NCBI GenBank assembly: GCA_965223825.1
Contig: OZ245018.1
Location: 2,012,272-2,076,271, forward strand
From: Gammaproteobacteria bacterium
GTDB taxonomy: Bacteria; Pseudomonadota; Gammaproteobacteria; CAJXQU01
Reading direction: 5' to 3'
Length of the DNA: 64,000 nt
The notes beneath the pieces were generated by a model. It did not search any database and was not told where the DNA came from. It worked only from the letters and a program-made list of their open reading frames with translations. Made by a program: the position numbers and the translations under genes. Positions 33,193-56,102 of the stretch are shown one piece after another (position 1 is the first letter of the stretch; each line of letters begins with the position of its first letter).

Positions 33193-33726
33193 TTATTCGA
33201 GGTTTGCGTGGCGTTCGCGCATTTCCTCTTCAGGAATATCCTTCTCGTGGATTAAGTGAGAAACGACCGCTTCAAGAAAAATCAGCGTCGATAACTCAAA
33301 CATGGTACCCATTGGCATGCCTTTGGTCGGGTTGTATTGTGACTCTTCTCCAATCTGCAAAACTTCATCTGCCAGATCAGCGATTGATGAGCTGTCGCGA
33401 GAACTAATGAGTAAAATCCTCGCGCCAACGGATTTCGCTTTTCGAGTAAAACCGATCAACTGCTCAGTTTCACCCGATCCGGAAATCACCACAAATACAT
33501 CGCCGTTGCCAATACTCGGCGTCACAACTTCACCGATCACACTGACCTCATAACCACCGTGCATCAGCCGCATGGCGAGGAAGTTACCGACAAGTTTTGA
33601 ACGCCCAGCACCGCACACGAAAATCCGCCTTGCCTGATCTAAACAGGTGATCAGTTTTGCTTCATATTCGTCCGGAGTGACAGCTAACACATTTTCAATT
33701 TTTTCCAGAATTTGCTGTCGATGCAT
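33193..33726 (-). CDS. hxlB: 6-phospho-3-hexuloisomerase (SIS domain).
   Basis: It has the SIS motif VCGAGRSKLVGNFLAMRL...VISGSGETEQ. It is 177 aa and sits directly downstream of hps. Confidence 0.8.
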   Translation of the reverse strand: MHRQQILEKIENVLAVTPDEYEAKLITCLDQARRIFVCGAGRSKLVGNFLAMRLMHGGYEVSVIGEVVTPSIGNGDVFVVISGSGETEQLIGFTRKAKSVGARILLISSRDSSSIADLADEVLQIGEESQYNPTKGMPMGTMFELSTLIFLEAVVSHLIHEKDIPEEEMRERHANLE

Positions 33727-33732
33727 AGCACG

Positions 33733-34374
33733 TTACCCTTTCGCAAGATTGACAAGTTCGCGTAATTCTCGTGCAGAATCTGCTGGTGAATCCGCTCCAT
33801 AAATTGCCGCGCCGACAACCACAATATCTGCGCCTGCTCTCACCGTGCCTTGAATCGTGTCACGGTTAATCCCACCAGCAACTGACACTTTTACGGGTAA
33901 ATTCAGATCCGCAATGGTTTTTAAATCCTGGAAAGGTGTTTGTCCAGATGCCTGCGCATCCAGACCCGTGTGTACACCAATGATATGTGCACCGTTTGTC
34001 ACCGCGTCTTTTGCGACGGCAACTTTATCTTTAACACCGATCAGATCAACCTGTGCTTCGCCCGCATTTGCATTTGCCGCTTTGATCACGCCTTTAATCG
34101 TTGCCATATCCGCAGCACCCAGTACCGTCGTGATTCTGCCGCCTGCTTTAAAAAACGGTGCGGCTTCATATTCACCGGCGTCCATGGTTTTCAGATCAAC
34201 TAAAATCTTTTTATCTGGATGCGCTGCTTTTAATGCGTGCACAATTTTTTCACCATTAAATTTAATGCATGGTGTACCGATCTCAATAATATCAATATAC
34301 GGTGCTGCCTGAGCAGCAAGTGCCAGCGTAGTGTCAAAGTCTAATGAATCCAATGCTAATTGAATTTCAGCCAT
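33733..34374 (-). CDS. hxlA: 3-hexulose-6-phosphate synthase (OMPDC-fold).
   Basis: Motifs IIEIGTPCIKFNG and VDLKTMDAG are present, and it is 213 aa. Confidence 0.85.
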   Translation of the reverse strand: MAEIQLALDSLDFDTTLALAAQAAPYIDIIEIGTPCIKFNGEKIVHALKAAHPDKKILVDLKTMDAGEYEAAPFFKAGGRITTVLGAADMATIKGVIKAANANAGEAQVDLIGVKDKVAVAKDAVTNGAHIIGVHTGLDAQASGQTPFQDLKTIADLNLPVKVSVAGGINRDTIQGTVRAGADIVVVGAAIYGADSPADSARELRELVNLAKG

Positions 34375-34485
34375 TTTTTATTACTCCATTTAAGTTTAAA
34401 AATTTTCCCCATTATAGGGAAAGTGTTACAGATTCAGTCAATAGAAGTATGACAATCTGTTGTCTTTTGCCTTATTTCAGACAAA

Positions 34486-34512
34486 AAGATGCCTTTACCG
34501 TCAGGTGTAAAA
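34486..34512 (-). terminator. Hairpin downstream of tal, a putative terminator.
   Basis: A perfect 11-bp stem (TACCGTCAGGT / ACCTGACGGTA) has a 5-nt loop. T-rich runs flank both sides. Confidence 0.4.
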
Positions 34513-34558
34513 CCTGACGGTATCTGTTTTCTGTTTATTATTTTGGTGAAAAAGTGGG

Positions 34559-35542
34559 CTAAGCCCAGAGTGCGTTTACACGCTCGGAGAGTTGCTCTTC
34601 CAATGTTTTTTGTGCATCAATAAAGCTGTTAATGCCTTCGGAAAGTTTTTCTGTTGCCATGCGATTTTCGGAGTGCATACGATCAAATGTTGATTTATCC
34701 ACTGTGATTTCTTCGATCGTCATTGCTTGAGATTTATCGATAGACAGTTTTCGTTCAAGCGGCTGAACGGTATTTTTTAATTCGTCTAACAAAGCTGGTG
34801 AGATGGTTAACAGATCAACACCTGCGAGTTCAAGGATCTCACCACTATTACGGAAACTTGCGCCCATCACTTCGGTCTTGAAACCGAACTTTTTGAAGTA
34901 ATGATAAATTTCAGTCACCGATAACACACCGGGATCTTCCGCTGCCGGATACGCATCACGGCCACTTTCTTTTTTGTACCAATCAAGAATTCGTCCAACA
35001 AAGGGGGAGATTAGAGTAATGCCGTGTTGTGCACACGCAATGGCTTGGTGTGATCCGAATATCAAGGTCAGGTTGCAATGAATGCCCTCTTTCTCAAGCA
35101 CTGTGGCGGCTTGAATACCTTCCCACGTTGCGGCGATCTTAATCAGAATCCGATCGCGTGAAATCCCTGCGGCATCGTATTGCGCGATCACCTTACGTGC
35201 TTTTTCAATTGTCGCGCCAGTATCATAAGAAAGTCGTGCGTCAACTTCCGTTGAGATCCGGCCCGGAATAATCGCTAATATTTTCAATCCAAACGCGATC
35301 GCAAGTTGATCAGCCGCTTGTGAAATAATGGCTTCTTCACTAGCGTCAGCACCCAGCTCGCCTCTAACTTTAGCGAGCGTCTCGTCCACAATCGTTTGAT
35401 ATTCCGGCATTTTAGCCGCTGCTGTGATCAAGCTTGGATTTGTTGTTGCGTCACGCGGCGTAAATTGTTCGATCGACAAAATATCGCCCGTATCTGCAAC
35501 AACGGTGGTCATGGTTTTTAATTGTTCAAGTAAGTTCGTCAT
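34559..35542 (-). CDS. tal: Transaldolase.
   Basis: It aligns along its whole length with the TalB pattern ([36 protein letters not shown]). I set the start at MTNLLEQLK by alignment with the TalB N-terminus. Confidence 0.9.
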
Positions 35543-35896
35543 GGTCATCAATTCTTCAATTCATAGAGTTAATTGCACTGCAATTCGCAAAAACGAATGA
35601 CAATGCCCGAATCATTTCTTTCAGGCAAGTAACTTGCCATATGTAAAGGTAATAATTCGAAACAAGCGTATAAGGAAATAAATCGCCTTTAACGCAATTC
35701 TATTTGGAAATTAGGATGGCCAGCGTCGCCAGCAATAGGCGAGAGGAAGAGTGACACGGGAACGTGTCGAGCTAGAAACTGAAAATTTATGTGAGGTCAG
35801 TGGACTCTCTGTAAGAGGCCCAAAGCATTCAACTCGATCAGACATCATCAAACCCTGATATGGTGTAAATGGTGCAACGCACTATATCGGAGATAT

Positions 35897-35949: not shown

Positions 35950-36744
35950 TCAGAATGCGCTTTTCACAACGCCACCATCAACACGCACTGCTGCACCATT
36001 GGTTGCTGATGCTAGCGGGCTACTTAGGTAGGTGATCATATTCGCGACTTCATCGACACTTGCGAAACGTTGAATTAATGACGTTGGCCGCGCGGATTTA
36101 AAAAATTCCGTTTCCATTTCTTCAAATGTAACGCCTTGTTGTTCACAGAGCTTGCCGACGAAATCATCAACGCCTTCTGATCGCGTTGGTCCTGGCAAGA
36201 CTGAATTGACCGTAATGTTCGTGCCTTTTGTGGTTTCGGCCAATCCACGTGCGATCGCAATTTGTGCTGATTTTGTCATACCGTAATGAATCATTTCTTC
36301 AGGGATTTGCATGCCCGATTCACTGGAAATAAAGATCACCCTGCCCCAATTATTCTTCCGCATGTTACGAATATAATAGCGCGATAAACGCACGCCGCTC
36401 ATGATGTTGGTATTAAAAAATTCCAACCATTCCTGATCAGCAATTTCATCAAACTCAACGGGGTTGAAAATGCCTAAATTATTAATCAGGATATCGACTT
36501 CCGGCACCGCTTGAAACAAGCATTCACAGCCCGCTGCGGTGGAAAGATCGGCCGCCATACCAACAATATTCGCATCCGGCACTTGCGCTTTTATTTCCTC
36601 AACGGCCGCATTCACGGAGGCATCGCTTCGGCCATTCAGAATCACTTTTGCGCCTTCTTGTGCTAAACGACTTACCGTTGCGAAACCAATCCCTTTTGTT
36701 GAACCACTAACCAACGCTGTTTTATCCGCCAGTTGTAAATCCAT
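35950..36744 (-). CDS. SDR-family oxidoreductase.
   Basis: It has a TGxxxGxG-like N-terminus (SGSTKGIGFA) and a YxxxK catalytic motif. Confidence 0.85.
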   Translation of the reverse strand: MDLQLADKTALVSGSTKGIGFATVSRLAQEGAKVILNGRSDASVNAAVEEIKAQVPDANIVGMAADLSTAAGCECLFQAVPEVDILINNLGIFNPVEFDEIADQEWLEFFNTNIMSGVRLSRYYIRNMRKNNWGRVIFISSESGMQIPEEMIHYGMTKSAQIAIARGLAETTKGTNITVNSVLPGPTRSEGVDDFVGKLCEQQGVTFEEMETEFFKSARPTSLIQRFASVDEVANMITYLSSPLASATNGAAVRVDGGVVKSAF

Positions 36745-36783: not shown

Positions 36784-38079
36784 CTACGTCATCTGTCTGA
36801 GTTCTTTTATTAAAAAATCAATTTCACTTGATGTATTAAAATGTGCAAATGAAATCCGTAACACGCCAGACGTGGGGTCAAGTTTTAACGCCTGTAAACA
36901 TCGCCATGCGTAAAAGCAACCGCCTTGCACTGCGATATTTTTCGCCGCTAATTTTTGTGCAAGCTCTAAGGGCGTTTGATCATTCAGTATTCGGAAACTG
37001 TACGTCGGTGATCGCTGCGCGGTGTTGGAATCTGACTTTCCAATTAATTGAAGCTGATCAAGCGCAGGTATTTGTTGCAAGAACTGTTCGGCCAACTGAG
37101 TTTCGTAAGCGGTGATTAAGGCGAAAACCTGCGTAACAACATCATGAAAATGTGTTATCTCATTATCAAAATGATGTTTATGTAAAGCATTAAAATAATT
37201 CACCAGACCGATCAAACTTGCGACAGACTCATGATTCACTAAGCCAGGGTTTAAGGCGATCCGTAAGTAATTCGGTGCGCCCGGTGTCGTTTTGCTGGCA
37301 TATAACTCCGGCATAAAGTCGAGAGATTGGTTTTGTAATTTATCGTGATGTGTTTGCTTCACATACAATAACCCTAAATGCGGGCCGAAAACTTTATATA
37401 AACTCAGTGTGTAAAAATCGACACCAAGTGCTTGCATATCCAACGCATGGTGTGGCGCGTAAGAAACACCATCGACCAGCAACATGGCATCACATTCATG
37501 CACGAGTCCAGCGATTCGTTTTACGTCGTTGACTGATCCGACAATATTAGAACTGTGAGGTATGCAGACCAGTTTTGTATCCGTCGACAGTAACGCGATT
37601 AAATCATCAACTTCCAGCTCGCCAGTTATCGGATTCAGCTGCCATTCATTGATCACCGCACCACAGCGCTCTAAACGACGCCAAGGAGAAATGTTGGATT
37701 CGTGATCTTGGTTGGTAACAATCACTTCATCGCCCGGTTTGAAATGCGGTCGCAACGCTTTCGCCAGCATCACCAGATTCATCGTCGTGCTATGCCCGAT
37801 AACAATCTCAGACGCGTCGGCATTGATCATCTCAGCCATCGCGACCGTGGCGGTCTCAATCATGTTCGTGGCTTCTTCCGACATCGCATACGGACCATAC
37901 GGCTGGACTTTGGTGTTGATCAGAAAATCTTCCATCTGATCAATCACCTGCTTAGGTACGTAAGTCCCACCGGCATTTTCAAAAAATGCGATATCTTTAT
38001 AACGACCTTCAGTCAGCGCTGGATATTGTTGCCGAACAAAATCACTATCCAACGTCTCACGTACCGCTACTTCCGTCAC
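36784..38079 (-). CDS. Class V (cysteine desulfurase-like) PLP-dependent enzyme.
   Basis: The PLP-lysine motif SLYKVFGPHLG is present. It is 431 aa. Confidence 0.7.
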   Translation of the reverse strand: MTEVAVRETLDSDFVRQQYPALTEGRYKDIAFFENAGGTYVPKQVIDQMEDFLINTKVQPYGPYAMSEEATNMIETATVAMAEMINADASEIVIGHSTTMNLVMLAKALRPHFKPGDEVIVTNQDHESNISPWRRLERCGAVINEWQLNPITGELEVDDLIALLSTDTKLVCIPHSSNIVGSVNDVKRIAGLVHECDAMLLVDGVSYAPHHALDMQALGVDFYTLSLYKVFGPHLGLLYVKQTHHDKLQNQSLDFMPELYASKTTPGAPNYLRIALNPGLVNHESVASLIGLVNYFNALHKHHFDNEITHFHDVVTQVFALITAYETQLAEQFLQQIPALDQLQLIGKSDSNTAQRSPTYSFRILNDQTPLELAQKLAAKNIAVQGGCFYAWRCLQALKLDPTSGVLRISFAHFNTSSEIDFLIKELRQMT

Positions 38080-40466
38080 TATTTGGCCTCAACACCTGCC
38101 ATGTACAACCACGTGTCGATCACCGTATCGGGATTCAACGACATGCTTTCAATGCCTTCATCGAGTAACCATTTGGCTAAGTCAGGGTGATCAGATGGGC
38201 CTTGTCCGCAAATACCCACGTATTTACCGGCTTTCTTGCATGCAGCGATTGCGCGAGAGAGCATGAACTTGACCGCTTCATCACGCTCATCAAACAGTTC
38301 GGAGACCAGTCCTGAGTCGCGATCAAGCGCGAGGGTCAGTTGTGTCATGTCGTTGGAACCGATGGAGAAGCCATCAAAGTATTCAAGGAATTTATCCGCA
38401 AGAATGGCATTACTCGGCACTTCGCACATCATGATGAGCTTGAGGCCGTTCTTGCCACGTTCTAGTCCGTATTTGGCGAGTAGTTCAACCACCGCTTTGG
38501 CTTGGCCGACGGTGCGCACAAACGGCACCATGACCCAGACGTTTTGCAGATTCATGTTGTCGCGCACGTAGCGCAGCGCACGGCATTCCAGCTCAAAGCA
38601 CGGTTCAAAATCAGCGGATAAATAGCGTGAGGTACCGCGATAGCCGATCATGGGGTTTTCTTCTTCCGGCTCAAAGTCGGGACCGCCAATGAGGTTCGCG
38701 TATTCGTTGGATTTAAAATCCGAAAGCCGCACGATGACCGGATTCGGCGCAAATGCCGCACCAAGCGTCGAGATACCTTCGATGAGCTTTTGTACGTAAA
38801 ATTCTACTGGATCGGCATACGCAGCGATGCGCGGTGCGATGTTGGCTTTCAGTTCATCACTGATGTTGTCGTATTCGAGTAAGGCCCGCGGGTGAATGCC
38901 GATCTTGTTGTTGATAATAAATTCGAGTCGAGCCAAACCAACACCGGCATTTGGGATCTGTGCAAAAGACATGGCTTTGCCGGGGTTGCCGACGTTCATC
39001 ATGATCTTCAGCGGTGCTGGTGGCATGTTGTCAAGTTCGACGCGGTTCACGACAAAGTCAACGTCACCATCAAATATTTGTCCGACTTCGCCTTCTGAAC
39101 AAGCAACGGTGACGGCTTGATCTTGTTGTATGACTTGCGTCGCATCACCACAGCCCACAACGGCCGGAACGCCGAGTTCACGTGCAATGATCGCCGCATG
39201 GCAGGTTCGTCCACCCCGATCTGTGACGATCGCGGAGGCGCGTTTCATGACGGGCTCCCAGTCCGGATCGGTCATTTGTGTGACCAACACGTCGCCGTCT
39301 TGCAGGTCGTCCATGTCTTCCAATCGGTGAATCACTTTGGCGTTACCTGCGCCGATCTTTTGGCCTATCGCCGCGCCAGTGATAATAACGTCCGCTTGAC
39401 CTTTTAATTCAAAACGTTCGATCACATTAACATTGCCGCGACTTTGCACCGTTTCAGGACGCGCCTGCACGATGTAGACCTTTTTGTCTTCGCCGTCCAA
39501 CGCCCATTCAATGTCCATAGGACGACCATAGTGTTTTTCAATAATCATGGCTTGGCGAGCCAGATCTTCAAGGTAGTCATCTGTTAAACAAAACTGTGCA
39601 GCATCAGCTGGATCAACGTCGATGGTTTTCACCAACTCGCCAGCGTCATCATCGTTGTAGATCATTTTGATCAGTTTGCTGCCGAGGCTGCGGCTTAAAA
39701 CGGCGGGATGATCCGAAACAAGATTTGGTTTATAGACGTAGTATTCATCGGGATTGACCGCGCCTTGAACGACGGTTTCACCGAGGCCGTAACTGCCGGT
39801 GATAAATACGGCTTGGTCGTAACCGGATTCGGTATCGAGGGTGAACATGACGCCGCTGACGCCAATGTCACTGCGCACCATGCGTTGCAGGCCCGCAGAG
39901 AGCGCGACCTCTTCGTGTTTAAAGTCGTGATGCACACGATAAGCAATGGCGCGATCGTTGTATAATGAGGCGTAGACTTCTTTCACGCGCAGCAGCACAT
40001 CGTCGATGCCACGTACGTTGAGGAAAGTTTCTTGTTGACCGGCGAAGCTGGCATCGGGTAAATCTTCAGCGGTAGCAGAGGAGCGCACGGCGATGGAGGC
40101 GCCATTAGCCGTGCCTTCGGATAGGCTGGCGTAAGCGGTTTTAATCGCGTCATCTAAATCGGGTTGAAACGGTGCCTCAATAATCCACTGACGAATATCG
40201 GCACCTGCGGCGTTGAGATCGCTCACCTTGTTGGTATCCAATCCGACCAAGCGTGTTTGAATGCGTTCGCGCAACTTGTTGTGATCGAGAAAATCCCAGA
40301 ATGCTTGTGCGGTGGTTGCATAACCATCCGGTACGCTCACGCCGGCATTGGCCAAATGGCTGATCATTTCACCGAGGGAGGCGTTCTTCCCACCGACGAT
40401 GCCGACATCGTCCATACCCAGTTCGCGAAACGGTTTGACGTACGCATTTGAGACGAGGTTTTTCAT
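38079..40466 (-). CDS. ppsA: Phosphoenolpyruvate synthase.
   Basis: It is 795 aa. Motifs [34 protein letters not shown] and the C-terminal PEP-utilising domain are present. Confidence 0.95.
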
Positions 40467-40508: not shown

Positions 40509-41351
40509 TTATTTTCGTTTTAGTAGATTTTTTTCTTTTGCAATTTTGACCGCGATCTCTTCAATCGAGATACTGGTTGAGTCGAATACCGTTAAACCTG
40601 ATCTGGCCATCATCTTATCGGCCTGTTTCAATTCTTTTTTACATTGATCTAACGACGCATAGGGTGAATTTGGTCGGCGCTGTTGTCGGATCGCACTAAG
40701 CTGATCAGCGCGGATCGTCAGCCCAACGGTTTTATCCAAATGTTTTTGTAAGAAATCGGGAAGCTCAGTGTGATGCAGATCATCATCCGTGAGCGGATAA
40801 TTCGCCGCTTTAATGGAGAAGTTCATCGCGAGATATAAACACGTCGGTGTTTTTGCACAACGCGACACACCAACCAGAATAATGTCCGCTTCCTCAAACT
40901 GAGTCGTCAACATGCCATCATCATTACGCAGAGTAAAATCAATCGCGTCGATGTGTTCGCTGTATTCGCGATCATCAAATTCTTCGTGAGGTTGGCCGGT
41001 GCTGTGCGACGATTCAATATTCAGATGTTTTTCTAATGGATCAATAAATTCATTAAATAAACTCACCAGGCAGGCGTCTGTATTAGCAATTATTTTTTCG
41101 ACAGATTCATCCACAATCGTACTGATCACGATCGGGGCTGTTCCGTTGCGAGTGGTGATGGACTGAATGTCGTTTACGATCTGTTCAGCATCAGCTTGAT
41201 TCGTGACAAAGGAGTAGGTTTTGTGTTCAAAATCGACCGATCCAAACTGCGATAATAAACTCAACCCGATAGATTCTGCTGTTTTGCCGGTGCGATCTGA
41301 AACAAAAAAGACACTGTTTTTCGCGATTTTTTCAGTCATGCGATTTTCCAA
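40509..41351 (-). CDS. ppsR: PEP synthase regulatory protein (bifunctional kinase/pyrophosphorylase).
   Basis: The N-terminus reads FFVSDRTGKTAE. A P-loop-like GVSRCAKTPTCLYLA is present. It is 280 aa. Confidence 0.8.
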   Translation of the reverse strand: MENRMTEKIAKNSVFFVSDRTGKTAESIGLSLLSQFGSVDFEHKTYSFVTNQADAEQIVNDIQSITTRNGTAPIVISTIVDESVEKIIANTDACLVSLFNEFIDPLEKHLNIESSHSTGQPHEEFDDREYSEHIDAIDFTLRNDDGMLTTQFEEADIILVGVSRCAKTPTCLYLAMNFSIKAANYPLTDDDLHHTELPDFLQKHLDKTVGLTIRADQLSAIRQQRRPNSPYASLDQCKKELKQADKMMARSGLTVFDSTSISIEEIAVKIAKEKNLLKRK

Positions 41352-41377: not shown

Positions 41378-42193
41378 TCACTCAGCGAGAAAATCTGAAA
41401 CCAATTGGTTAAATCGATCTGCATGTTCTATCTGCGTCCAGTGACCACATTGCCCAAACAAGTGGAGTTGTGATCGTTCGATCAATGAGAACAAGCGTAA
41501 CGCATTTTCATGTGGAATAACGTGATCTTCTCGACCATGTAGAATTAATGTGTCTTGCTGAAGTGCCTGAATGTCCGCTTCCGAACTGGCCATGGCCTTG
41601 ATCGCATTCTGCCGTGGTGCAGGAAACATTTTCTCGAACGATTCCTGAAACCCAGGACGAATGCTGGCCTGATACCGAAGTTCGGCTAATTCATCGGTAA
41701 CCAAGTTCCGATCATACGCAAAAATATCAAGTAATTTCCGCATATTCGCGAGTGAAGGTTGATATCCCCAAGTTTTATCTAGGCCATCTGTCAATTGGAA
41801 CTCTAAACCAACACTGCCCATCAGCACCAGTTTTTTTACCCGATCAGGATGTTGGATAGCCAGGGCCAAAGCCAACGCACCACCAAACGAATTGCCGATG
41901 ATCGGTGCCGATTCAATACTCAACGCATCCATCACGCCGATGAGCTGATCAACCCAGTTTTGCATGGTGTAGTTATAATCATCAGGTCGTTCAGTAAAAC
42001 CAAAGCCCACCATATCCGGTGCGATCACGCGATATTTTTTCGCTAAAACTGGCAAGCTCAAGCGCCAGTTTGCCCATGCACTCACACCGGGGCCAGAGCC
42101 ATGAATCATTATGACCGGTTCACCTTTCCCGAGATCATGATAATTCGTTTGAATACCATTAGCCTGAATTGACAAACTGATTTCTGGGTTCAT
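41378..42193 (-). CDS. dmpD: 2-hydroxymuconate-semialdehyde hydrolase (alpha/beta hydrolase, meta-cleavage product hydrolase).
   Basis: Motifs HGSGPGVSAWANW and the GNSFGG nucleophile elbow match DmpD/XylF. I chose the first ATG; the track's start is GTG at 42214. Confidence 0.8.
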   Translation of the reverse strand: MNPEISLSIQANGIQTNYHDLGKGEPVIMIHGSGPGVSAWANWRLSLPVLAKKYRVIAPDMVGFGFTERPDDYNYTMQNWVDQLIGVMDALSIESAPIIGNSFGGALALALAIQHPDRVKKLVLMGSVGLEFQLTDGLDKTWGYQPSLANMRKLLDIFAYDRNLVTDELAELRYQASIRPGFQESFEKMFPAPRQNAIKAMASSEADIQALQQDTLILHGREDHVIPHENALRLFSLIERSQLHLFGQCGHWTQIEHADRFNQLVSDFLAE

Positions 42194-42263
42194 ACCGATC
42201 GCCTCATATGACACTTTATGTTAATGATCGAAAATATATAATTCATATACGTGAATTTTATCT

Positions 42264-42291
42264 ATTCTTTTTTTAATTCTTAATTCTTAAT
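42264..42291. repeat. Heptanucleotide tandem repeat (TTAATTC)x4 in the promoter region of the hydrolase gene.
   Basis: I read it directly: ttaattc ttaattc ttaattc ttaattc. Confidence 0.6.
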
Positions 42292-42374
42292 TCTTAATTC
42301 TTTTAAATAATTTTTCTTAAAAATTTAAACAACACTATTATTAAATTTTAGTTGAACTGATCAAGTCGACAGAT

Positions 42375-42413
42375 AAAAAAATGCGGGTTAAAGATATAAA
42401 ATCAATAACCCGC
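42375..42413 (-). terminator. Rho-independent terminator (minus strand) between the 4-oxalocrotonate decarboxylase and hydrolase genes.
   Basis: On the minus strand it reads GCGGGTTA ttgattttatatctt TAACCCGC followed by ATTTTTTT. Confidence 0.55.
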
Positions 42414-42595
42414 CAATACTGGGACGTCAAATGGCTAGAGAGTTAAAGGAAGTCACAATCATCCTGATTGTCGTGCTGTCATCCTTGCGAAGATTAAATG
42501 AACTCTAGAATCACTTAATCCACATTCGTTACATTACATCCTTCACTTTTCTCAACTCTGCCCAGTCTACTGTTAACGACTTACTTCACTTCAAA

Positions 42596-43384
42596 TCAAA
42601 CAAACGTCATCGAAATCGTACCTAAATCCTGATAGCGAACAGTGACAGCATCCCCTTTCTCTACCGTGACGGCAGCGGTCATACCACCGGTCATAATAAA
42701 TGTACCTGCCGGAATATGTTCACCACGTTCCGCTAACATATTTGCCAACATCGCAACGCTCGCTGCAGGGTGCCCAAGCACTGCTGCACCGGCACCGACT
42801 TCAACCACTTGGCCATTTTTTTCCATGACAACGCCCAAGGTTTTTAGATCCAAGTCTTTCACATCACGAACATTACCACCCGTGACAAAACGTGAGGACG
42901 ACGCGTTGTCCGCAATCACACTTTTTAAATCAAATTTAAAATCACGATAGCGTGAATCGATCACCTCAACGGCTGGTACAACACTGTCAATCGCGGCAAG
43001 TACATCACCAACATGACAACCTGGACCGTAAAGTGGTTTGCTCGTAATCACGGCAACTTCCGCTTCCACTTTCGGGTGAATTAATTCATCTGTTTTCACT
43101 TCGCAACCATCAGATAAGGCAAAATAATCGGCGAGAAATGCATAGATTGGTGTTTCAACGCCCATCTGTTTCATTTTTGCAAATGATGTCAGCCCCATTT
43201 TCAAACCAACAATCCGGTTACCTCGGGCAATTTTGCGCTCCCGAATTGCCCATTGAATGTCATAGGCATCTTTCCAATCCATAGCAGGATAATCGTCGGT
43301 AATTTTGACGACGTCATGTGCTTGCAATTCTGCATTTTCAAGCCGTTCTGCAAGTTCGTTGATTGTATTCGTATCTAATGACAT
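42596..43384 (-). CDS. dmpH: 4-oxalocrotonate decarboxylase.
   Basis: It belongs to the MhpD/XylI/XylJ superfamily. The motif NAELQAHD...IVGLKMGLTSFAKMKQMGVETPIY matches the decarboxylase branch. Its ATG overlaps the upstream stop by 1 nt. Confidence 0.75.
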   Translation of the reverse strand: MSLDTNTINELAERLENAELQAHDVVKITDDYPAMDWKDAYDIQWAIRERKIARGNRIVGLKMGLTSFAKMKQMGVETPIYAFLADYFALSDGCEVKTDELIHPKVEAEVAVITSKPLYGPGCHVGDVLAAIDSVVPAVEVIDSRYRDFKFDLKSVIADNASSSRFVTGGNVRDVKDLDLKTLGVVMEKNGQVVEVGAGAAVLGHPAASVAMLANMLAERGEHIPAGTFIMTGGMTAAVTVEKGDAVTVRYQDLGTISMTFV

Positions 43385-44439
43385 CAGGCAGATTCTCGCA
43401 TTTTTGTTCCACGCTCACGCAGAATATCCAGGGCCACATCTTCGATCATATCTTCCTGACCGCCGACGGTTTTTCGTTTACCAAGCTCGACTAAAATATC
43501 TCTCGCCGATACACCGTGTTTCGCTTCGGCGCGTTTTGCATGCAAGAGAAATGAGGAATACACACCGGCATAGCCCAACATGAGTGAATCGCGATCAACC
43601 CGGGTCGGTGTCTCCATCATTGGTACGGCAATGTCTTCCGCTGCATCCACTAATTTGTCCAGCTCAACACCACAATCTATCCCCATGCGATCACACACGG
43701 CGGCGAATACTTCGAGCGGTGTATTACCTGCCCCCGCACCCAATCCCGCGACTGATCCATCAATACGGCGTGCACCAGCTTCGACCGCTGCGATCGAATT
43801 CGCAACGCCCATCGCCAAGTTATGGTGACCATGAAATGCGATCTCAACATCCTCTGGCAAACCGTCTCGTAATGTACCTATACGCTCACGCACACCTTCC
43901 GGTAATAAATAACCCGCCGAGTCTGTGGCATATATACAATTTGCACCGTAGGAGACCATCAGCTTTGCTTGCTCGAGTAATTTTTTACCGTCCACCATAT
44001 GCGCCATCATAAGAAAACCAACTGTATCTAAGCCGAGTTTTCGCGCATGACTAATATGCTGCTCACTCACATCCGCTTCCGTACAATGTGTCGCAACGCG
44101 AATGGTATGAATGCCACAATCGTGTGCCATTTCTAAATGCTTAACGGTACCGATGCCGGGAATTAATAATGCCGAAATTTTCGCGTGTTTCATTTCTGGA
44201 ACCACCGCACGCAAATATTCCTCGTCGGTATTTTTCGGAAAACCATAATTCACCGACGCACCGCCTAAGCCATCACCATGGGTGACTTCGATCAGATCCA
44301 TTTTTGCGTCGTCCATCGCTTTCGCTAAGGTCACCATCTGATCAACACTGAACTGATGTGCAACGGTATGCATGCCATCGCGTAACGCGTTGTCATGCAA
44401 CTTAATTTTGATACCTCGTAAATCTTTTGTTGTACTCAT
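43384..44439 (-). CDS. dmpG: 4-hydroxy-2-oxovalerate aldolase.
   Basis: It has a TIM-barrel aldolase fold. The motif [11 protein letters not shown] matches DmpG/MhpE. Its start lies 10 bp after the acetaldehyde dehydrogenase stop and has a GAGGG RBS. Confidence 0.9.
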
Positions 44440-44449
44440 GCTTAAGCCC

Positions 44450-45355
44450 TCAATGATTCGCCGCTTTTTCCGCTTGATCTGCAAGCATCTGCTCTGCGAA
44501 CATTTCCGCCGTCCGCGCACCGGCTGCCGTCATAATGTCGAGATTGCCAGCATGTTTGGATAAGTAATCACCACGGCCTTCAACCTCAAGAAAAATACTG
44601 ACGCGATTACCATCAAAAACGGGACCATTTTTAATGCGATATCCCGGTACATACTTTTGAACTTCTTTTTCCATTTCCAACACGGATTTAGTGATCGCGG
44701 CCTCGTTTGGTTTATCTTTCGTCAAACAATGTACTGTGTCTCGCATCATGATCGGTGGTTCAGCAGGATTTAAAATGATGATCGCTTTACCCTCATCCGC
44801 CACACCAATTTTTGCAACCGCATTTGATGTGGTTTGAGTAAACTCATCAATATTTTTTCGCGTTCCAGGACCCGCTGATGCGGATGCTGCTGTGGCAATA
44901 ATTTCAGCGTATTTTAAATCTTGAATTCGACTAACTGCGCGAACCATAGGAATTGTTGCTTGCCCGCCGCAAGTGACCATATTGACATTCATTTCCCCTT
45001 TACCAATATGTTCAGCCATATTCACTGGTGGTACGCAAAAGGGACCAATCGCTGCTGGGGTCAGGTCTATCATTACCACGCCATGCTCTTGTACTTTGCG
45101 ACTATTTTCCGCATGGACATAAGCAGATGTCGCATCAAATGCAATGCGTACATTGTCTCCTGCCATATTTGCGATCAAACCATCTACACCTTCGTGAGTA
45201 CATTTCATGCCTTCTTTCGCAGCACGCGCCAAGCCGTCAGATTTTGGATCTATTCCAACCATCCAAACCGGCTCGAGCACCTCGCTACGTTTTAGCTTGT
45301 ACATAAGATCGGTGCCGATATTGCCCGATCCAATAATTGCACATGCGATTTTCAT
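44450..45355 (-). CDS. dmpF: Acetaldehyde dehydrogenase (acetylating).
   Basis: The N-terminus [20 protein letters not shown] matches MhpF/DmpF. The catalytic Cys region [10 protein letters not shown] is present. Confidence 0.9.
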
Positions 45356-45433
45356 TTTTCTATCCTCTTACCAACCTGGTCATTAATTTAGTCGTTTGGT
45401 TGGTCATTTTTTTAATTTGATCATTATTTTTAT

Positions 45434-46225
45434 TTATTCAAAACACAGCGAAGCGTTTCCCATCCCACCAACATGCACGGTCATATGATCACCCGGTTTA
45501 ATCGGAATGAGTGGGACAAGTGATCCAGATAAAATCACGTCACCAGCTTGCAGTGGAATCTCAAACTTGCCGAGTGTATTGGCTAACCATGCAACGCAAG
45601 TTAACGGTGAACCTAACGCCGCTGCTCCAGCACCGGTTGCAACGATCTCCCCATTTTTTTCTAACACCATACCGACCGTGGTTAAATCTAATTTCCGTGG
45701 GCTGATCGCTTGATGTCCGAGTGCAAAGTATCCGCACGAAGCATTGTCCGCGATGGTGTCTTGAATTTTGATTTTCCAGTCTCGGACACGTGAATCGACA
45801 ATTTCAAAACATGGCACAACAAAGTCCGTTGCGCGCAAGACGTCCGCAGCCGTCACACCGGGACCGGTTAAATCTTTTTTTAATACAAATGCGATTTCAC
45901 CTTCCGCACGTGGTTGAATCATCTTTTCACTGATCGGAATCGTTTGACCCGTTTCATAAACCATCTGATCGGTTAAATAACCAAAGTCCGGTTGATGCAC
46001 ACCCAGCATGTTTTGGACGGCTTTACTGGTCACACCGATTTTTTTACCGATGACTTTTTCGCCGGACTCTAATCGGTTATCAAGCAAGCGGGTGGAAATC
46101 GCATAAGCATCTTCAATGCTCATTTCAGGTTCACGATCAGTAATCGGTTCGATCACCTCACATGAACGTAATGCGGCAAAAAGATCATCACCGTATTGTT
46201 TAATTTTTTTCTTTTCCATGCTCAT
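45434..46225 (-). CDS. dmpE: 2-oxopent-4-enoate (2-hydroxypentadienoate) hydratase.
   Basis: The motif IGKKIGVTSKAVQNMLGVHQPDFGYL matches the MhpD/DmpE/XylJ hydratase branch. Its ATG at 46225 overlaps the HMS dehydrogenase stop (ATGA). Confidence 0.75.
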   Translation of the reverse strand: MSMEKKKIKQYGDDLFAALRSCEVIEPITDREPEMSIEDAYAISTRLLDNRLESGEKVIGKKIGVTSKAVQNMLGVHQPDFGYLTDQMVYETGQTIPISEKMIQPRAEGEIAFVLKKDLTGPGVTAADVLRATDFVVPCFEIVDSRVRDWKIKIQDTIADNASCGYFALGHQAISPRKLDLTTVGMVLEKNGEIVATGAGAAALGSPLTCVAWLANTLGKFEIPLQAGDVILSGSLVPLIPIKPGDHMTVHVGGMGNASLCFE

Positions 46226-47682
46226 AGTTTCACGCAAATATTTTTAAGCTCGGTATAAAACTCGAGTGAATGAACACCGCCTTCACGACCAATACCGGAA
46301 CGTTTCATGCCACCAAATGGAGTACGTAAATCACGTAAGAACCAACTATTTACCCACACAATGCCGGCTTCAATTTTACTCGCGACACGATGCGCTCTTG
46401 ATGAGTTTTCTGTCCAGATCGCAGCACATAATCCGTACTCTGTATCATTCGCCAGTGCGATCACTTCCTCTTCAGAATCAAATGGGCGGATATGGCAGCA
46501 AGGGCCAAAGATTTCTTCTTGAACCACCGCAGCATCGTCCGGTAAATCTGTCCAGATTGTTGGTTCGATCCACGCGCCATTTTGCATTTCACCTGGCATG
46601 TCGGGTATACCACCACCGATTACGACGGTTGCGCCCTCTTCCACAGCTTTTTTGTAATACGAAACGACTTTATCGCGATGCCCTTTACTAATCAGTGGGC
46701 CAAGGTTTGTTTCCGCATCTTTCGGATCACCGAGTTTAAGTTTTGTTACCTCGTCTTTTAATCGACGAACAAATTCTTCATAAATTGGACGTTCAACGTA
46801 AACTCGCTCTGTGCCAAGGCAGACTTGTCCGCAGTTAACAAATGTTGATCGCATCGTGCCTTCAATCGCTTTATCCATGTCGCAATCAGCGAAAATAATG
46901 CCTGGGTTTTTCCCCCCCATTTCCATGGAGACAGGTCGTGACCCTGTCGCTGCCGCACGCATGATAATTTCTCCGGTGACTGTTTCACCGGTAAACGTGA
47001 TCGCATCGACATCTCGATGTTCTGTCAGGAATGCACCAGCAGAATCACCACCAAAACCATTCACGACGTTATAGACACCTTTCGGTACGCCTGCCTCATT
47101 CATAACTTCACCTAACAAGGTCGTTGTGAGTGGTGTTTCTTCCGAGGGTTTGACAATGACGGTATTACCACACGCGAGTGCTGGCCCGACTTTCCACGTC
47201 ATCAACAACAGTGGCAAGTTCCACGGTGAGATCACGGCTATAACACCTTGAGGGACGCGGGTCGCATAATTGATCGCGCCGGTGCCATCTGGTGTCGCCA
47301 TTTCAAACGCTTCTGTGGGTACATTTTTTATCGTGTCAGCAAACACTTTAAAATTTGCTGCGCCCCGTGGGATATCGATGTGACGGGCGAGTGAATAAGG
47401 TTTACCAGTATCAAGGCACTCGGCTTCGAGAAAATCGTCAAAACGCGCATCAATTCCGTCCGCAATTTTGTACAAAATCGCTACGCGATCTTGCAAAGTC
47501 ATTTCTCCCCAAGGGCCATTTAAGGCTGCTTTTGCTGCTGCGACGGCAGCATCGACCTCGGCGCGCCCACCTTCATGCACGCGCGCAATGACACTACCGT
47601 CTACAGGTGAAATATCATCAAACATTTTTCCATTTGACGAACCGACGAATTCCCCACCAATAAAATGTTTTATTTCTTTCAT
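46222..47682 (-). CDS. dmpC: 2-hydroxymuconic semialdehyde dehydrogenase (NAD+ aldehyde dehydrogenase).
   Basis: It is 486 aa. ALDH motifs include EMGGKNP (as SMEMGGKNPGII) and a catalytic Cys in FVNCGQVC. Confidence 0.9.
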   Translation of the reverse strand: MKEIKHFIGGEFVGSSNGKMFDDISPVDGSVIARVHEGGRAEVDAAVAAAKAALNGPWGEMTLQDRVAILYKIADGIDARFDDFLEAECLDTGKPYSLARHIDIPRGAANFKVFADTIKNVPTEAFEMATPDGTGAINYATRVPQGVIAVISPWNLPLLLMTWKVGPALACGNTVIVKPSEETPLTTTLLGEVMNEAGVPKGVYNVVNGFGGDSAGAFLTEHRDVDAITFTGETVTGEIIMRAAATGSRPVSMEMGGKNPGIIFADCDMDKAIEGTMRSTFVNCGQVCLGTERVYVERPIYEEFVRRLKDEVTKLKLGDPKDAETNLGPLISKGHRDKVVSYYKKAVEEGATVVIGGGIPDMPGEMQNGAWIEPTIWTDLPDDAAVVQEEIFGPCCHIRPFDSEEEVIALANDTEYGLCAAIWTENSSRAHRVASKIEAGIVWVNSWFLRDLRTPFGGMKRSGIGREGGVHSLEFYTELKNICVKL

Positions 47683-47710
47683 AGGATGTTTATTCTCTAT
47701 TTATTGTTTT

Positions 47711-48130
47711 TTATGTAATTGCGTCTAAACCGGCTTGAGCGCATAACTCGTCTTGCTCTTCCGATGCACCTGAAACACCTATGGCGCCAACACAATCATC
47801 TCCTAACCTGATCGGAACACCTCCACCGAAGGCGACAAACCGATCACGCTGCACAATGCCTTCACGTAGTAACGATCCTTGTGGTAACACCTCACGCCAC
47901 TGACTTGTTGGAATGCTAAAACTGGCCGAGGTATAGGCTTTATCGATCGCGATATTGATGGACATGTACGGTGCATTTTCACTGCGTAAAAACGCCACCA
48001 ACTGCCCACTGCTATCCACAACAGCAACGGCTATGTGCACCCCTAATTCAGAGGCCTTCGCGATTGCTGCCTTGACAGAAACCTGTGCTGACTGCCAATG
48101 AATCAATTGTTTTTTATGTGTAATAACCAT
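47711..48130 (-). CDS. GlcG/HbpS-like (DUF336) protein, first gene of the lower-pathway operon.
   Basis: It is 139 aa. The region AVVDSSGQLVAF...GGGVPIRLGDDCVGAIGVSGASEEQDELCA fits DUF336. Confidence 0.6.
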   Translation of the reverse strand: MVITHKKQLIHWQSAQVSVKAAIAKASELGVHIAVAVVDSSGQLVAFLRSENAPYMSINIAIDKAYTSASFSIPTSQWREVLPQGSLLREGIVQRDRFVAFGGGVPIRLGDDCVGAIGVSGASEEQDELCAQAGLDAIT

Positions 48131-48210
48131 TTATTTAAAAAGAAATATCAGTTGTTCCGCATTTTCTATAAAATGTGTTTTACCTACTATTAACTACACA
48201 ACTAAATAAT

Positions 48211-48240
48211 ATCGATATTTTATATTTTGTCGATATTTTA
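48211..48240. promoter_or_regulatory. Copy A of the shared operator-like motif ATATCGATATTTTATATTTTGTCGATATTTTAT, in the divergent promoter between the lower-pathway operon and the GntR gene.
   Basis: It matches copies B and C at nearly every position. Confidence 0.5.
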
Positions 48241-48316: not shown

Positions 48317-49000
48317 ATGACCGAACCTAAATCTAAAACGCTCTTTGAATCTGTTTTTAACCGAATTCGTGCCGATATTATTGATGGCAAACTTGATCCG
48401 GATTCCAAACTTCGCATTGAAGAATTACGCGAAAAATATGAAACAAGTGCCAGTCCTTTGCGTGAAGCATTAAACCGATTGGCTGGCCAAGGTTTTGTGA
48501 TCGTGACCGGTCAACGCGGCTTTCGTGTCTCGCCTGTTTCCATGGCCGACATAGAGGACATCACGCGCATGCGTATCATGCTGGAATGTGAAGCCTTAAA
48601 AGAAAGCATCGAAAAAGGCGATGATGAATGGGAAGCCAATATTATTGCCTCTTATCATCGGCTCACCAAAGCACATGAAATTAGAGAAGCGAATTTTCAA
48701 GAATGGGAGATCCGTAATAACGATTTCCACGAAACATTGATCGCCGCCTGCTCTTCTACTTGGCTACTCAATTTCAGACATGTTCTCTACGAACAACATA
48801 AACGCTACCGACTCATTTCTATTTTGGAACATGATTACAGTCGAGATATTCGTGCAGAACATGAAGCCATTAAAGAAGCGACTATCGAACGCGATGTTGA
48901 TCGTGCACTTGAAGAAACACGTAAACACATTCAACGCACGCTAGATTCAACAAAACTCAAAATCTCACAGCATGATGAAGAGTTAAAGAACCGAGCCTGA
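48317..49000 (+). CDS. GntR-family regulator (FadR/FCD subfamily), divergent from the meta-pathway operon.
   Basis: It has an N-terminal wHTH (ELREKYETSASPLREALNRLAGQGFV) and an FCD-like helical C-terminal domain. Confidence 0.8.
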   Translation: MTEPKSKTLFESVFNRIRADIIDGKLDPDSKLRIEELREKYETSASPLREALNRLAGQGFVIVTGQRGFRVSPVSMADIEDITRMRIMLECEALKESIEKGDDEWEANIIASYHRLTKAHEIREANFQEWEIRNNDFHETLIAACSSTWLLNFRHVLYEQHKRYRLISILEHDYSRDIRAEHEAIKEATIERDVDRALEETRKHIQRTLDSTKLKISQHDEELKNRA

Positions 49001-53945: not shown

Positions 53946-55942
53946 TTAAAAACGATAACGAACTAACAGTTGAACTTGATCTTCATTTTGCGCCATACCA
54001 ATTGGGCCAGAGCGGAATCGGCCTAATGGTTCAAAACCACTTAAACCAAGACTTTGGCTTGGTGCGCCTGTTCCAGTAAATGGAGGAAAAGGATCAGCAC
54101 TTCTTGCATCATCAAATGGTCGCGCACCTGTACCGAACTTAAAGTTCGCACCTAACGTGACACGCCAGTTGTCATTCACAAGCCAATCGATAGACGGTGC
54201 AACTGCTGCGGCTTGTGCACGAACATCGTACGCGGTGATGATTTGCGGGCTAAGTCGATCGTTCATGTACCAACCTTTTACCAATAACGTCGTGATAAAG
54301 TTATCTTTCCAGTCGGGATACCAATCTTACCTAACGGTCCGTCTTCCAGATCGTGCTCAAGAATATGTTGACCAAATACTTGTGCAGAAAATAAGAAAGC
54401 ACGCGTTTTGTTTAAGAAAGGAATGAAAGTTGGTCGATCTGCGCCGACAACCCAACGGATAACATCAGACTCTGAATACATTTCCGGTTTTGAGGTATTC
54501 GCAAACTCTTCACCAGTTGTCCATGCAGCTTCAACCCGAAAAGCTGTTTTCAAGCTATCCACATAAAAGTCCGCTGAACCACCGAGTAAACCGACACGTG
54601 GAAAATGAATGTCGAATGCGATCAGATAATCACGATTTAATTCAACACCGCCGGTACCGACTCCCGGAACGGTTACACCGGGTGCAATAAAAGGATTCAC
54701 TGCAGCCACATTACCCGCTCTCAGCGATGGAAGTTGTGAGCGGTAGTACAATCCGTTAAGTGAGAAACCCACGCCTTTATAAACACCCTCTAAGCGCATA
54801 CCGACTTCGGTTTCATCCAATTCCCAATCAGGCATCACTGCTTCACGAATACCGATACTGTGAGCTGGGAAATCCGTTTGTGCACCGCCACCGGCAAAGT
54901 TAGAAACAGAACAGCCATTTTCCCAACAATTATTCAGCGCGCGGAATAAGGAACCTGCATCGAGAATGGAGTTTGGTGTACCACCCTGGCCAAGGTTACT
55001 AGGACGAAATTTTTCGAACTTCCACAAGAACTGTAAGTTCAGATCATCAAATGTTTCTGTCGCACCCCAACGGTATTCCGCGGTTGCGATCCCCATTGGA
55101 ATACGAATATCTTCCAATTCGTCATAGATATTATTTCGTGAATAATCCACTGGGTTGATAACATCTAAAACACGGAATAAATCCGTACGGCCCCACACGA
55201 CCTGTTGGCGACCAAAGGTTAAATCTAATTGACGGCCGTTGGCTAATGGGATGGTGCCCGAGACATACGCTTCACGAATGACATCCGCTCGGCTATTAAA
55301 CTCCGGGTTTTGTAGATCGCTTTCTTCATAATCCAAATAGCCATCAATACAACCACGCGGATCAATATTGCACGGCCTCACTGGAACGCCGATTAACACA
55401 CCACCGTCATCTCCGTGTAATTGTGAGCCCAATTGAACCAAGCCTTCATTTGGATTCTAAGTGACATCAAAACCGAAGCCACCGCCTCCCGGTAAGCCTG
55501 GATTACCGGCAGTCACCAATGAGTTACCCCAAGGTGTGGTAATACCCGCAGGCACAGCCGATGGACCTAATACTCCGGCTGGAACACCGGCAGACGTATA
55601 TTCAACAGAGCCACCCGCATTTCTACCGTATTCATCATCGTTCAGATCATAAACCGCATCGTAGCTCGCACGAAGTGTGCCGTTGAATTGAAAGTTTTTG
55701 AAAATACCCACATCACCTAATGTTTTTGAAATTTCCAGGTTTAGGGTGTTGCGCATTTTAGATAACCCTTCTCCGTGTAAACGGACATGGGTGTCAGTCT
55801 CGAAATAACCGTGGATCTCCGCTTCTTCCGCATTCACTCCAGCACTTGCCGCTGTGAGTATTCCTGCAACCAGAAGCGATGTGGGCGTCATATTACTGGA
55901 AATATGAGCGTTCCCCTCCTGCATTCGCTTACGAACAGACAT
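53946..55942 (-). pseudogene. DUF1302-family outer-membrane protein gene, apparently disrupted. It is split into three ORFs by an in-frame TAG (55457-55459) and a +1 frameshift near 54280-54330.
   Basis: ORF 55457..55942 carries the signal peptide. ORF 54278..55441 is in the same frame as the first, with only a TAG and five sense codons (NPNEGL) between them. ORF 53946..54284 is in a different frame and ends ...LLVRYRF, a typical beta-barrel C-terminus. The three fragments total about 660 aa, which fits DUF1302. Confidence 0.55.
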
Positions 55943-56072
55943 GCTTAGCCTCCTCTTTTTTATTGTTTAAACAACTCGTTTTACAGAGTTGTCCTGCACC
56001 GCTTATTTATGTATTTTTAGAAATACTTATTTATATCTATTTTTATTTTTAAATCTTACGCAGACTAATTAT

Positions 56073-56102
56073 ATCGATATTTTTATTAATGTCGATATTT
56101 TT
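56073..56102. promoter_or_regulatory. Copy B of the shared motif, ATATCGATATTTTTATTAATGTCGATATTTTT, about 130 bp upstream of the DUF1302 gene.
   Basis: I read it directly; it aligns with copies A and C. Confidence 0.5.

Follow-up and report, generated by a model that had tools for sequence, protein, structure and literature searches.

A predicted conserved RNA module between the decarboxylase and hydrolase genes of a gammaproteobacterial meta-cleavage operon

In a 64,000-nucleotide stretch of the chromosome of a Gammaproteobacteria bacterium (assembly GCA_965223825.1, contig OZ245018.1, positions 2,012,272 to 2,076,271; hereafter the window), we identified a predicted new, conserved, folded RNA module that is absent from Rfam and lies in the gap between the decarboxylase and hydrolase genes of a meta-cleavage lower operon, a gap that a first-pass annotation had treated as a mere spacer. 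The module is the main new item of this analysis; as a catabolic operon, the array is routine, a well-known system in a form typical of its lineage. Genes are denoted here as X (nahX-like), C, E, F, G and H (dmpC, dmpE, dmpF, dmpG and dmpH), D (hydrolase) and I (4-oxalocrotonate tautomerase, 4-OT). The best explanation, to which we assign a probability of about 0.6 as a whole, is that a chromosomal meta-cleavage island of the AphS/AphR type, leading from phenol to catechol, has its lower half here, the AphS assignment being predicted. The H-D junction within it is, as judged from folding and alignment, a conserved internal terminator or attenuator module.

The RNA module at the decarboxylase-hydrolase junction

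The H-D gap spans 402 bp when measured from the ATG at 42193 and 381 bp from the GTG at 42214, and its GC content is 31% vs. about 44% for the window, in agreement with the AT-rich spacer of about 380 bp described earlier. Related loci and contigs, labelled with L-numbers, were collected by scanning species-representative genomes for the decarboxylase, which yielded 80 loci annotated by profile search, with additional members coming from exact-protein look-ups and from a metagenome scan (best identity 72%; only L102 was added). Four lineages carry a long H-D gap with the RNA module, and the module was delineated in an alignment of five sequences from these lineages (coordinates of all features are given in Table 1). 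The order of elements is the same in every aligned sequence: a CA-N-GGAUGA motif, a 7-bp hairpin with a GGA loop, a CU-rich tract, a variable linker and the terminator.

The minus-strand terminator proposed in the first-pass annotation was recovered at the same position and consists of an 8-bp GC-rich stem, an inner stem and a U7 tract, with none of 200 shuffled sequences folding as well (0/200). Its stem is kept in the four lineages, with one compensatory pair, and the terminator arm is the sole part of the gap that is conserved down to the most divergent relative. The stem of the GGA-loop hairpin reads ACAAUCA/UGAUUGU, ACAAACA/UGUUUGU, GCGGCCA/UGGCUGC or GCAGUUA/UGAUUGC, depending on the lineage. 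Both hairpins are predicted by RNAalifold unaided; in the two-helix structure, 98.7% of cells are paired vs. 33-43% when the partners are slid, four pairs show compensatory changes, and no shuffle attains the covariation score. An additional 5' hairpin is shared only with L097, L098 and L180 and shows a U-A to C-G compensatory change in the alignment. The 165 nt of the gap that end at the terminator are 89% identical to L097, and the flanking genes are 71-78% identical at the DNA level. Exactly two GGA triplets, 20-21 nt apart at fixed positions, are present in four of the five sequences, with no other GGA in the element; the remaining sequence, L014, keeps only the first and reads AGA at the second position. 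In single-sequence folds of three lineages, the CU tract pairs with the first GGA, forming one long hairpin capped by GGA. A covariance model (R1) matched only H-D junctions in 1.86 Mb of sequence, and Rfam yielded no match to the module at E ≤ 1 for the window or at E ≤ 5 for L102, L180 and L181. Small open reading frames (ORFs) starting at the GGAUG motifs were considered and rejected; they encode 7-16 aa, and their sequences, read by eye, are not conserved between lineages.

Could the GGATG-N16-GGATG pair instead be a direct-repeat site in DNA, bound by a transcription factor that controls a hydrolase/pps promoter? Both motifs are invariant and 20-21 bp apart (two helical turns) in all lineages, as such a site would predict; however, the stem around the second motif changes its sequence completely between lineages while staying complementary, which is the signature of an RNA helix and not of a protein-read operator, and the motifs lie upstream of a terminator, so that we regard this possibility as quite improbable. 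Still further down the scale, and very improbable, is that the gap is the remnant of a decayed tautomerase gene, the insertion of a mobile element or an assembly artefact. It is true that the gap sits exactly at the 4-OT position of sister lineages and that several assemblies break inside it, but a 4-OT hidden Markov model (HMM) gives no residual signal in any frame of the gap, by which we rejected a decayed 4-OT gene, and searches of the window and of 1.9 Mb of loci turned up no second copy, by which we rejected a repeat or mobile element. Moreover, independent assemblies of several samples contain the same gap sequence, and it is in the 30-bp heptamer repeat that they break. Nor does the gap resemble the native upstream regions of ppsR in L094-L096.

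The heptamer repeat, previously reported as four copies of TTAATTC, was detected by Tandem Repeats Finder (TRF) with 4.3 copies. Same-species contigs from other samples (L002-L006, L012 and L013) start or end within the repeat, with 0-4 AAATTAA units added; Logan assemblies are built with k = 31, and the breaks occur because such a graph cannot span a 30-bp repeat. By our own reading, changes in copy number do not alter the distance between a TTAAGA/TTAAAA hexamer and a TAAAAT -10-like site, so that no switching effect is evident. The earlier statement that the minus strand of the gap contains only ORFs of 11 aa or fewer is correct for those initiated by ATG, the longest of which, read by eye, has 11 aa (MIVTSFNSLAI), and does not extend to stop-free stretches, the longest of which has 33 codons.

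The short motifs of the module provide a lead toward CsrA/RsmA. Site 1 reads (G/C)CA-N-GGAUGA in all lineages and site 2 reads CAGGAUG in three of the five sequences; the likeness to the consensus given below is good, though motifs so short prove nothing by themselves. The module has the configuration expected of a CsrA-type target, namely a GGA loop on a 7-bp covarying stem with a second GGA 20-21 nt upstream; CsrA is known to bridge sites at distances of 10-63 nt. The SELEX consensus for CsrA/RsmA is RUACARGGAUGU, with the GGA in a hairpin loop (PMC7652899). Like CsrB/RsmZ-type modules, the element displays GGA in a short hairpin loop, another GGA at a distance of about 20 nt and flanks that resemble the consensus (CA-N-GGAUGA/CAGGAUG), and one GGA is predicted to pair with a CU tract resembling an anti-Shine-Dalgarno sequence, a pairing also described for the psl leader (PMC7652899). 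Unlike those modules, it contains two sites only and is followed at once by an intrinsic terminator, in what is either a 3' untranslated region (3'UTR) or an intercistronic position. No csrA gene was found in the window or in the related loci examined. If this likeness holds, the gap would encode an undescribed Csr/Rsm-responsive module, either a 3'UTR-derived sponge or small RNA or a protein-controlled attenuator, that would couple aromatic catabolism (yielding pyruvate) to hydrolase-ppsR-ppsA and gluconeogenesis, with the hydrolase having replaced the tautomerase in a tautomerase-independent pathway; this full scenario we consider unlikely. The module is nevertheless a concrete candidate for post-transcriptional control inside an aromatic-degradation operon.

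Gene order among relatives and transcription of the hydrolase

Enzyme identities were assigned with curated NCBIfam equivalogs at their own cut-offs, and domains with Pfam. X, C, E, F, G and H form a tight leftward array, and the order given in the first-pass annotation (a GlcG/DUF336-like gene, then C, E, F, G and H, followed by the hydrolase) stands, with five equivalogs above their cut-offs, PF03928 in the first gene and a CumD match for the hydrolase. The aldolase carries the DmpG communication domain PF07836; for the hydratase and the aldolase, the starts of the longest ORFs lie beyond the called starts. Of the two hydrolase starts considered, GTG at 42214 and ATG at 42193, gene callers pick the ATG, which has GAGG upstream. 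The closest solved relative of the hydrolase is CumD (2d0d, E = 3e-124), with the serine of GNSFGG, the Asp and the His of the catalytic triad aligned, and it shares about 70% identity with the hydrolases that other bacteria encode in the canonical place, flanked by C and E. Its JGI name is 2-hydroxymuconate-semialdehyde hydrolase; it scores below the NCBIfam equivalog cut-offs for HsaD (215 vs. 400) and BphD (183 vs. 462). For the nahX-like protein, the closest solved structure is 'NahX' (PDB 9jth, E = 2.3e-36, residues 3-138), for which our literature search found no paper. The function of NahX is given as unknown or unclear (PMC5336314, 2017; PMC5796565, 2018).

The three closest loci (84, 80 and 78% identity), all from uncultured Gammaproteobacteria, have the order C-E-F-G-H-D-ppsR-ppsA and no 4-OT. 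In L015 and L018, an oppositely oriented gntR gene and X stand in front, giving the full X-C-E-F-G-H-D-ppsR-ppsA, whereas the L014 contig begins within C. The order in L097 and L098 is that of the window; in L102, D-ppsR-ppsA follows three tightly packed ORFs, which we read as F-G-H because their sizes fit a dehydrogenase, an aldolase and a decarboxylase; and L180 and L181 carry H-D, with ppsR also present in L180. The hydrolases of this context are monophyletic. The hydrolase-after-H order, common to at least six related uncultured lineages, is on this comparison inherited within the lineage and not a one-off. The next relatives (Thiothrix, Thiolinea and Thioalkalispiraceae) have gntR, in opposite orientation, followed by C-E-F-G-H-I; since these sister lineages have I after H, the hydrolase occupies the tautomerase position in the clade of the window. 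A ppsR-ppsA tandem with unrelated upstream genes occurs in L094-L096 and is native to the wider uncultured clade, and only the sub-clade with the meta operon has a hydrolase directly upstream of ppsR. The meta operon has a stable link to ppsR-ppsA, and hence to the conversion of pyruvate, its product, into phosphoenolpyruvate (PEP).

Some further observations concern these neighbours. Throughout this uncultured clade, ppsR and ppsA are co-directional and about 40 bp apart, whereas their arrangement in Escherichia coli is divergent. A gene for a cysteine-desulfurase-like class V aminotransferase (36784-38079) overlaps the ppsA stop by 1 bp and is followed by an SDR gene (35950-36744); the same aminotransferase also follows ppsA in L097 and L098, so the tight array may extend past ppsA. 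In L099, a metagenomic lineage, a 74%-identical hydrolase (4001-4822) lies right after dmpP and faces a convergent aldolase gene, a further location for the hydrolase.

The hydrolase had been described as split off and as seemingly transcribed separately. Rather than being split off, it is packed with ppsR, which begins 38 bp past the hydrolase stop, and with ppsA, which begins 42 bp past ppsR, and no terminator was found between the three genes. Separate transcription is supported in part, by the conserved strong terminator, by the lack of any AphS-type box in the H-D gap even at three mismatches and by the species-specific AT-rich segment with its two weak promoter-like sites; the short gaps in L015 and L018, read-through in sister species and promoter-like sites in the gap that are no better than chance count against it, and all three speak for a single long operon. 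In such an operon, the terminator would be leaky or conditional, hydrolase-ppsR-ppsA would be transcribed only by read-through from the AphS-controlled promoter, and the gap would be an attenuator setting a lower hydrolase level. The H-D gap is 62 bp in L015 and 35 bp in L018, without a terminator, which indicates that the hydrolase is ancestrally or alternatively an operon member, and the distance from the terminator to the hydrolase start is only 33-66 nt in L097, L181 and L014, which is too short for a promoter and implies read-through in these lineages. The window itself, however, combines a strong hairpin (-16.8 kcal/mol) and U7 tract with an extra AT-rich segment of about 175 nt that is missing from these three sister loci, and ppsA is a housekeeping gluconeogenic gene, for which sole dependence on a phenol-repressed promoter seems unlikely. 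We consider the single-operon alternative possible but doubtful. The AT-rich segment contains two weak sigma-70-like sites with 9/12 matches each (TTGATC-16-AATAAT at 42364-42337 and TTAAGA-17-TAAAAT at 42283-42255); no sigma-54 promoter with up to three mismatches was found in the gap or before the operon.

Under the preferred explanation, an internal terminator or attenuator in a lineage-typical operon, the RNA module would end most transcripts of the AphS-controlled operon and would probably stabilise or regulate them, and the hydrolase, and possibly ppsR-ppsA, would be expressed at a lower or differently controlled level. In sister species, hydrolase expression would occur by read-through; in the window species, a promoter in the AT-rich segment with the heptamer repeat may also contribute. 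Several points weigh against this explanation. At five sequences from four lineages, the covariation support is indicative, not conclusive; promoter-like hexamers in the gap number 12, vs. 17.9 expected, and are not above chance; terminator efficiency and the presence of a promoter ahead of the hydrolase are both inferred; substrates are assigned to the hydrolase by homology only; and a tautomerase may lie elsewhere in the genome, the searches described below having covered the window and 8.5 kb upstream.

Tautomerase, phenol regulon and neighbouring genes

The absence of a tautomerase gene from the window, reported in the first-pass annotation, was borne out by searches of several kinds. No 4-OT gene was found in the window by tblastn with XylH, DmpI and YwhB; the single match with E < 1 (58714-58917) lies in frame within the MalT/LuxR gene and was therefore dismissed as chance. 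Four rounds of jackhmmer over all ORFs of at least 45 aa, both within the window and in contigs of the same species that extend 8.5 kb farther upstream (past its right end), likewise identified none, and so also cover the sequence immediately outside, where a tautomerase gene would have spoken against the earlier conclusion. The same jackhmmer search recovered 43 tautomerases in the 80 related loci, which demonstrates that the method works, and an HMM built from these 43 reached a best score of 4.8 bits in the six frames of the window.

Among the 50 loci with enough flanking sequence, 4-OT was within 1 kb after H in 17, elsewhere in the locus in 10 and absent in 23, and the hydrolase was upstream (C-D-E) in 14, just after H in 6 and absent in 30. 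Of the 39 related loci flanked by 9 kb or more on each side, 18 had no 4-OT. Unlinked or absent 4-OT and a displaced hydrolase are common features, lineage traits and not anomalies, and the non-canonical order is not an isolated case. The presence of a nahX-like gene is independent of the presence of 4-OT (11, 9, 16 and 14 of the 50 loci in the four cells), and we rejected on this ground the nahX-like protein as a substitute for the tautomerase.

The hydrolytic branch converts 2-hydroxymuconic semialdehyde (HMS) to 2-hydroxypenta-2,4-dienoate and formate. Catechol 2,3-dioxygenase (C23O), hydrolase, hydratase, aldolase and acetaldehyde dehydrogenase would together convert catechol or methylcatechols to pyruvate and acetyl-CoA without C, I and H. 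The dehydrogenase branch (C, then H) would need either an unlinked tautomerase or slow non-enzymatic ketonisation of 2-hydroxymuconate, and a non-enzymatic rate exists that is routinely subtracted in 4-OT assays (PMC4141196). Because C and H are intact and conserved, this branch is probably in use. A gene of the 4-OT family elsewhere on the 3.33-Mb chromosome could complete it, in which case only gene placement would differ from the classical pathway. That C and H score above the equivalog cut-offs and are kept in all relatives argues that the branch is used, and a tautomerase more than 1 kb from H is found in 10 of the 50 related loci; conversely, the 64-kb window and the further 8.5 kb upstream contain none, and the 18 of 39 loci mentioned above lack one within about 9-10 kb on either side. 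We rate an unlinked tautomerase as a little short of an even chance. Nearly half of the closest related loci lack a linked 4-OT, which raises the question of how often the dehydrogenase branch operates in its absence, or whether flux instead passes through the hydrolytic branch.

The regulator gene divergent from the lower operon encodes a predicted AphS/BphS-type repressor, with homologs at the same position in L015, L018, L020, L021 and L023; its best plasmid-borne relatives are FCD proteins that are 41-46% identical, one of them annotated as BphR. Three AphS-type box pairs, all intergenic and with at most two mismatches to the palindrome, were found in the window and nowhere else in it, and the exact 12-mer of the box occurs three times in the window vs. 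about 0.01 expected for a random 12-mer. The published AphS/BphS palindromes are AwATATCGATATwT and AAATmTCGAkATTT (PMC6449761). The box pair between gntR and X overlaps a sigma-70-like promoter on the minus strand (-35 TCGACA at 48233-48228, -10 TATTAT at 48211-48206), and this TCGACA-16-TATTAT is the best promoter-like site of the region, with 10/12 matches. Thiothrix eikelboomii and a Thiodiazotropha metagenome-assembled genome also have this dual box close to their gntR homologs (L023 5703-5730 and L034 3260-3287).

On the same strand upstream of the lower operon follow, in order, the MMPL/BNR/DUF1329/DUF1302 cluster, a VanA-like Rieske oxygenase, a MalT/LuxR regulator, a VanB-like reductase, C23O, the ferredoxin and the end of dmpP; just past the window, a contig of the same species (L007) carries an activator with XylR_N, V4R, Sigma54_activat and HTH_8 domains and then dmpKLMNOP. 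Genes with DUF1302, PF07044, COG4447 and COG1033 are members of the AphS/AphR regulon (PMC6449761), and with the present region an uncultured lineage of Gammaproteobacteria joins those known to carry an AphS/AphR-type phenol regulon, including its published operator and its accessory genes for transport.

Table 1. Positions of the features discussed, in coordinates of the window
Feature	Position	Strand	Evidence or remark
ppsA, PEP synthase	38079-40466	-	NF005057, 1220 bits; TIGR01418, 1163 bits
ppsR, PEP synthase regulatory kinase/phosphorylase	40509-41339	-	PF03618; NF003742, 278 bits vs. 225
D, meta-cleavage product hydrolase, CumD/DmpD-like, alpha/beta hydrolase	41378-42193	-	PF00561; 271 aa
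Species-specific AT-rich segment between terminator and hydrolase	42194-42371	-	about 175 nt; GC 10-30% per 50 nt
Heptamer tandem repeat, (TTAATTC)x4.3	42273-42302		TRF, 100% matches; polymorphic between samples
Conserved structured RNA module (predicted)	42372-42498	-	about 127 nt; five sequences from four lineages
Intrinsic terminator	hairpin 42383-42413; U7 tract 42375-42381	-	-16.8 kcal/mol, z = -4.6
7-bp hairpin with GGA loop	42455-42471; loop GGA 42462-42464	-	RNAalifold
CA-N-GGAUGA motif	GGA at 42482-42484	-	20 nt upstream of second GGA
Additional 5' hairpin of module	42491-42521	-	compensatory change in alignment
H, 2-oxo-3-hexenedioate (4-oxalocrotonate) decarboxylase (4-OD), DmpH type	42596-43384	-	TIGR03218, 465 bits vs. 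351
G, 4-hydroxy-2-oxovalerate aldolase, DmpG type	43384-44439	-	TIGR03217, 528 bits vs. 286; 351 aa from called start
F, acylating acetaldehyde dehydrogenase, DmpF type	44450-45355	-	TIGR03215, 451 bits vs. 282
E, 2-oxopent-4-enoate hydratase, DmpE type	45434-46225	-	TIGR03220, 423 bits vs. 409
C, HMS dehydrogenase, DmpC/XylG type, NAD-dependent	46222-47682	-	TIGR03216 equivalog, 883 bits vs. 693
X, nahX-like DUF336/HbpS-like protein, operon gene 1	47711-48130	-	PF03928, 131 bits vs. cut-off 25
AphS-type box pair, TATCGATATTTT-N6-TGTCGATATTTT	48206-48239		between gntR and X
GntR/FCD-family regulator, predicted AphS/BphS-type repressor	48317-49000	+	PF00392 and PF07729
AphS-type box pair	56068-56101		before DUF1302/DUF1329/BNR/MMPL genes
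C23O, feeds lower pathway	61588-62508	-	TIGR03211, 423 bits vs. 320
AphS-type box pair	62677-62710		before C23O gene
XylT-type ferredoxin	62739-63050		precedes C23O

Other genes of the window were noted in passing. The VanA-like oxygenase (56204-57268), the MalT/LuxR-type STAND regulator (57559-60375) and the VanB-like reductase (60465-61427) reach no NCBIfam equivalog; together they may form an O-demethylase that would feed catechol into the pathway. Genes of the ribulose monophosphate pathway, hps (TIGR03128, 240 bits) and phi (TIGR03127, 198 bits), lie together with a transaldolase gene at 33193-35551, 8 kb downstream, and could either detoxify formaldehyde from O-demethylation or indicate methylotrophy. 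The DUF1302 outer-membrane gene (53946-55942, minus strand) is split into three ORFs by a nonsense codon at 55459 and a 1-bp deletion near 54318, and is intact, with 665 aa, in other samples of the same species (L007-L010); the broken gene is either a strain pseudogene or the result of sequencing errors. An ORF of 2221 aa at 9436-16101 has internal repeats of about 300 nt and about 170 nt (12778-13811 and 9712-12331).

Comparison with known systems

The order in the window, X-C-E-F-G-H-[RNA module]-D, differs from the canonical C-D-E-F-G-H-I. As in the dmp cluster of Pseudomonas sp. CF600 and the phe cluster of P. pseudoalcaligenes C70 (dmpKLMNOPQBCDEFGHI), there are a multicomponent phenol hydroxylase, a XylT-type ferredoxin, C23O and the enzymes of both branches (PMC5336314). 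Unlike those clusters, the genes here form several transcription units, and C23O is separated from the lower operon by genes for regulation, oxygenation and transport. The hydrolase gene has moved from its place between C and E to one after H, 4-OT is lacking, the nahX-like gene comes first, and the operators are AphS-type. The gene nahX is known as an accessory gene of nah/sal meta operons, and the lower (sal) operon of NAH7, P. stutzeri AN10 and P. pseudoalcaligenes C70 also contains this DUF336 gene (PMC5336314), although there it is last, after nahJ, whereas here it is the first gene.

The btx cluster of Cupriavidus cauae PHS1, of the 'mixed' P/S type, shares the succession of ferredoxin, C23O, an unknown ORF, HMS dehydrogenase (HMSD), hydratase, acetaldehyde dehydrogenase (ADA), aldolase and 4-OD, with the hydrolase BtxW detached (PMC10394343), and an order of ferredoxin-C23O-unknown ORF-HMSD with a detached hydrolase has been published for such clusters (PMC10394343; PMC7012976). 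In PHS1, however, 4-OT directly follows 4-OD and the hydrolase lies behind toluene monooxygenase genes (PMC10394343), whereas the hydrolase of the window takes the tautomerase position and abuts ppsR-ppsA. CumD, a 2-hydroxy-6-oxo-7-methylocta-2,4-dienoate hydrolase (1iun/2d0d), aligns end to end with the hydrolase of the window (residues 2-270); CumD belongs to a cumene pathway, and the enzyme of the window may prefer either HMS or alkyl ketones.

Closest in regulation is the AphS/AphR system of Betaproteobacteria, such as aph of Comamonas testosteroni TA441, with which the region shares a GntR repressor, multiple palindromes, a XylR/DmpR-type activator beside the phenol hydroxylase, DUF1302/PF07044/COG4447/COG1033 genes in the regulon and a lower pathway set apart from the upper one (PMC6449761). 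It differs in its gammaproteobacterial host, in the absence of the tautomerase and of an AphT (LysR) gene from the window, and in the position of its aphS-type gene, which is divergent from the lower operon instead of being part of an aphRS operon.

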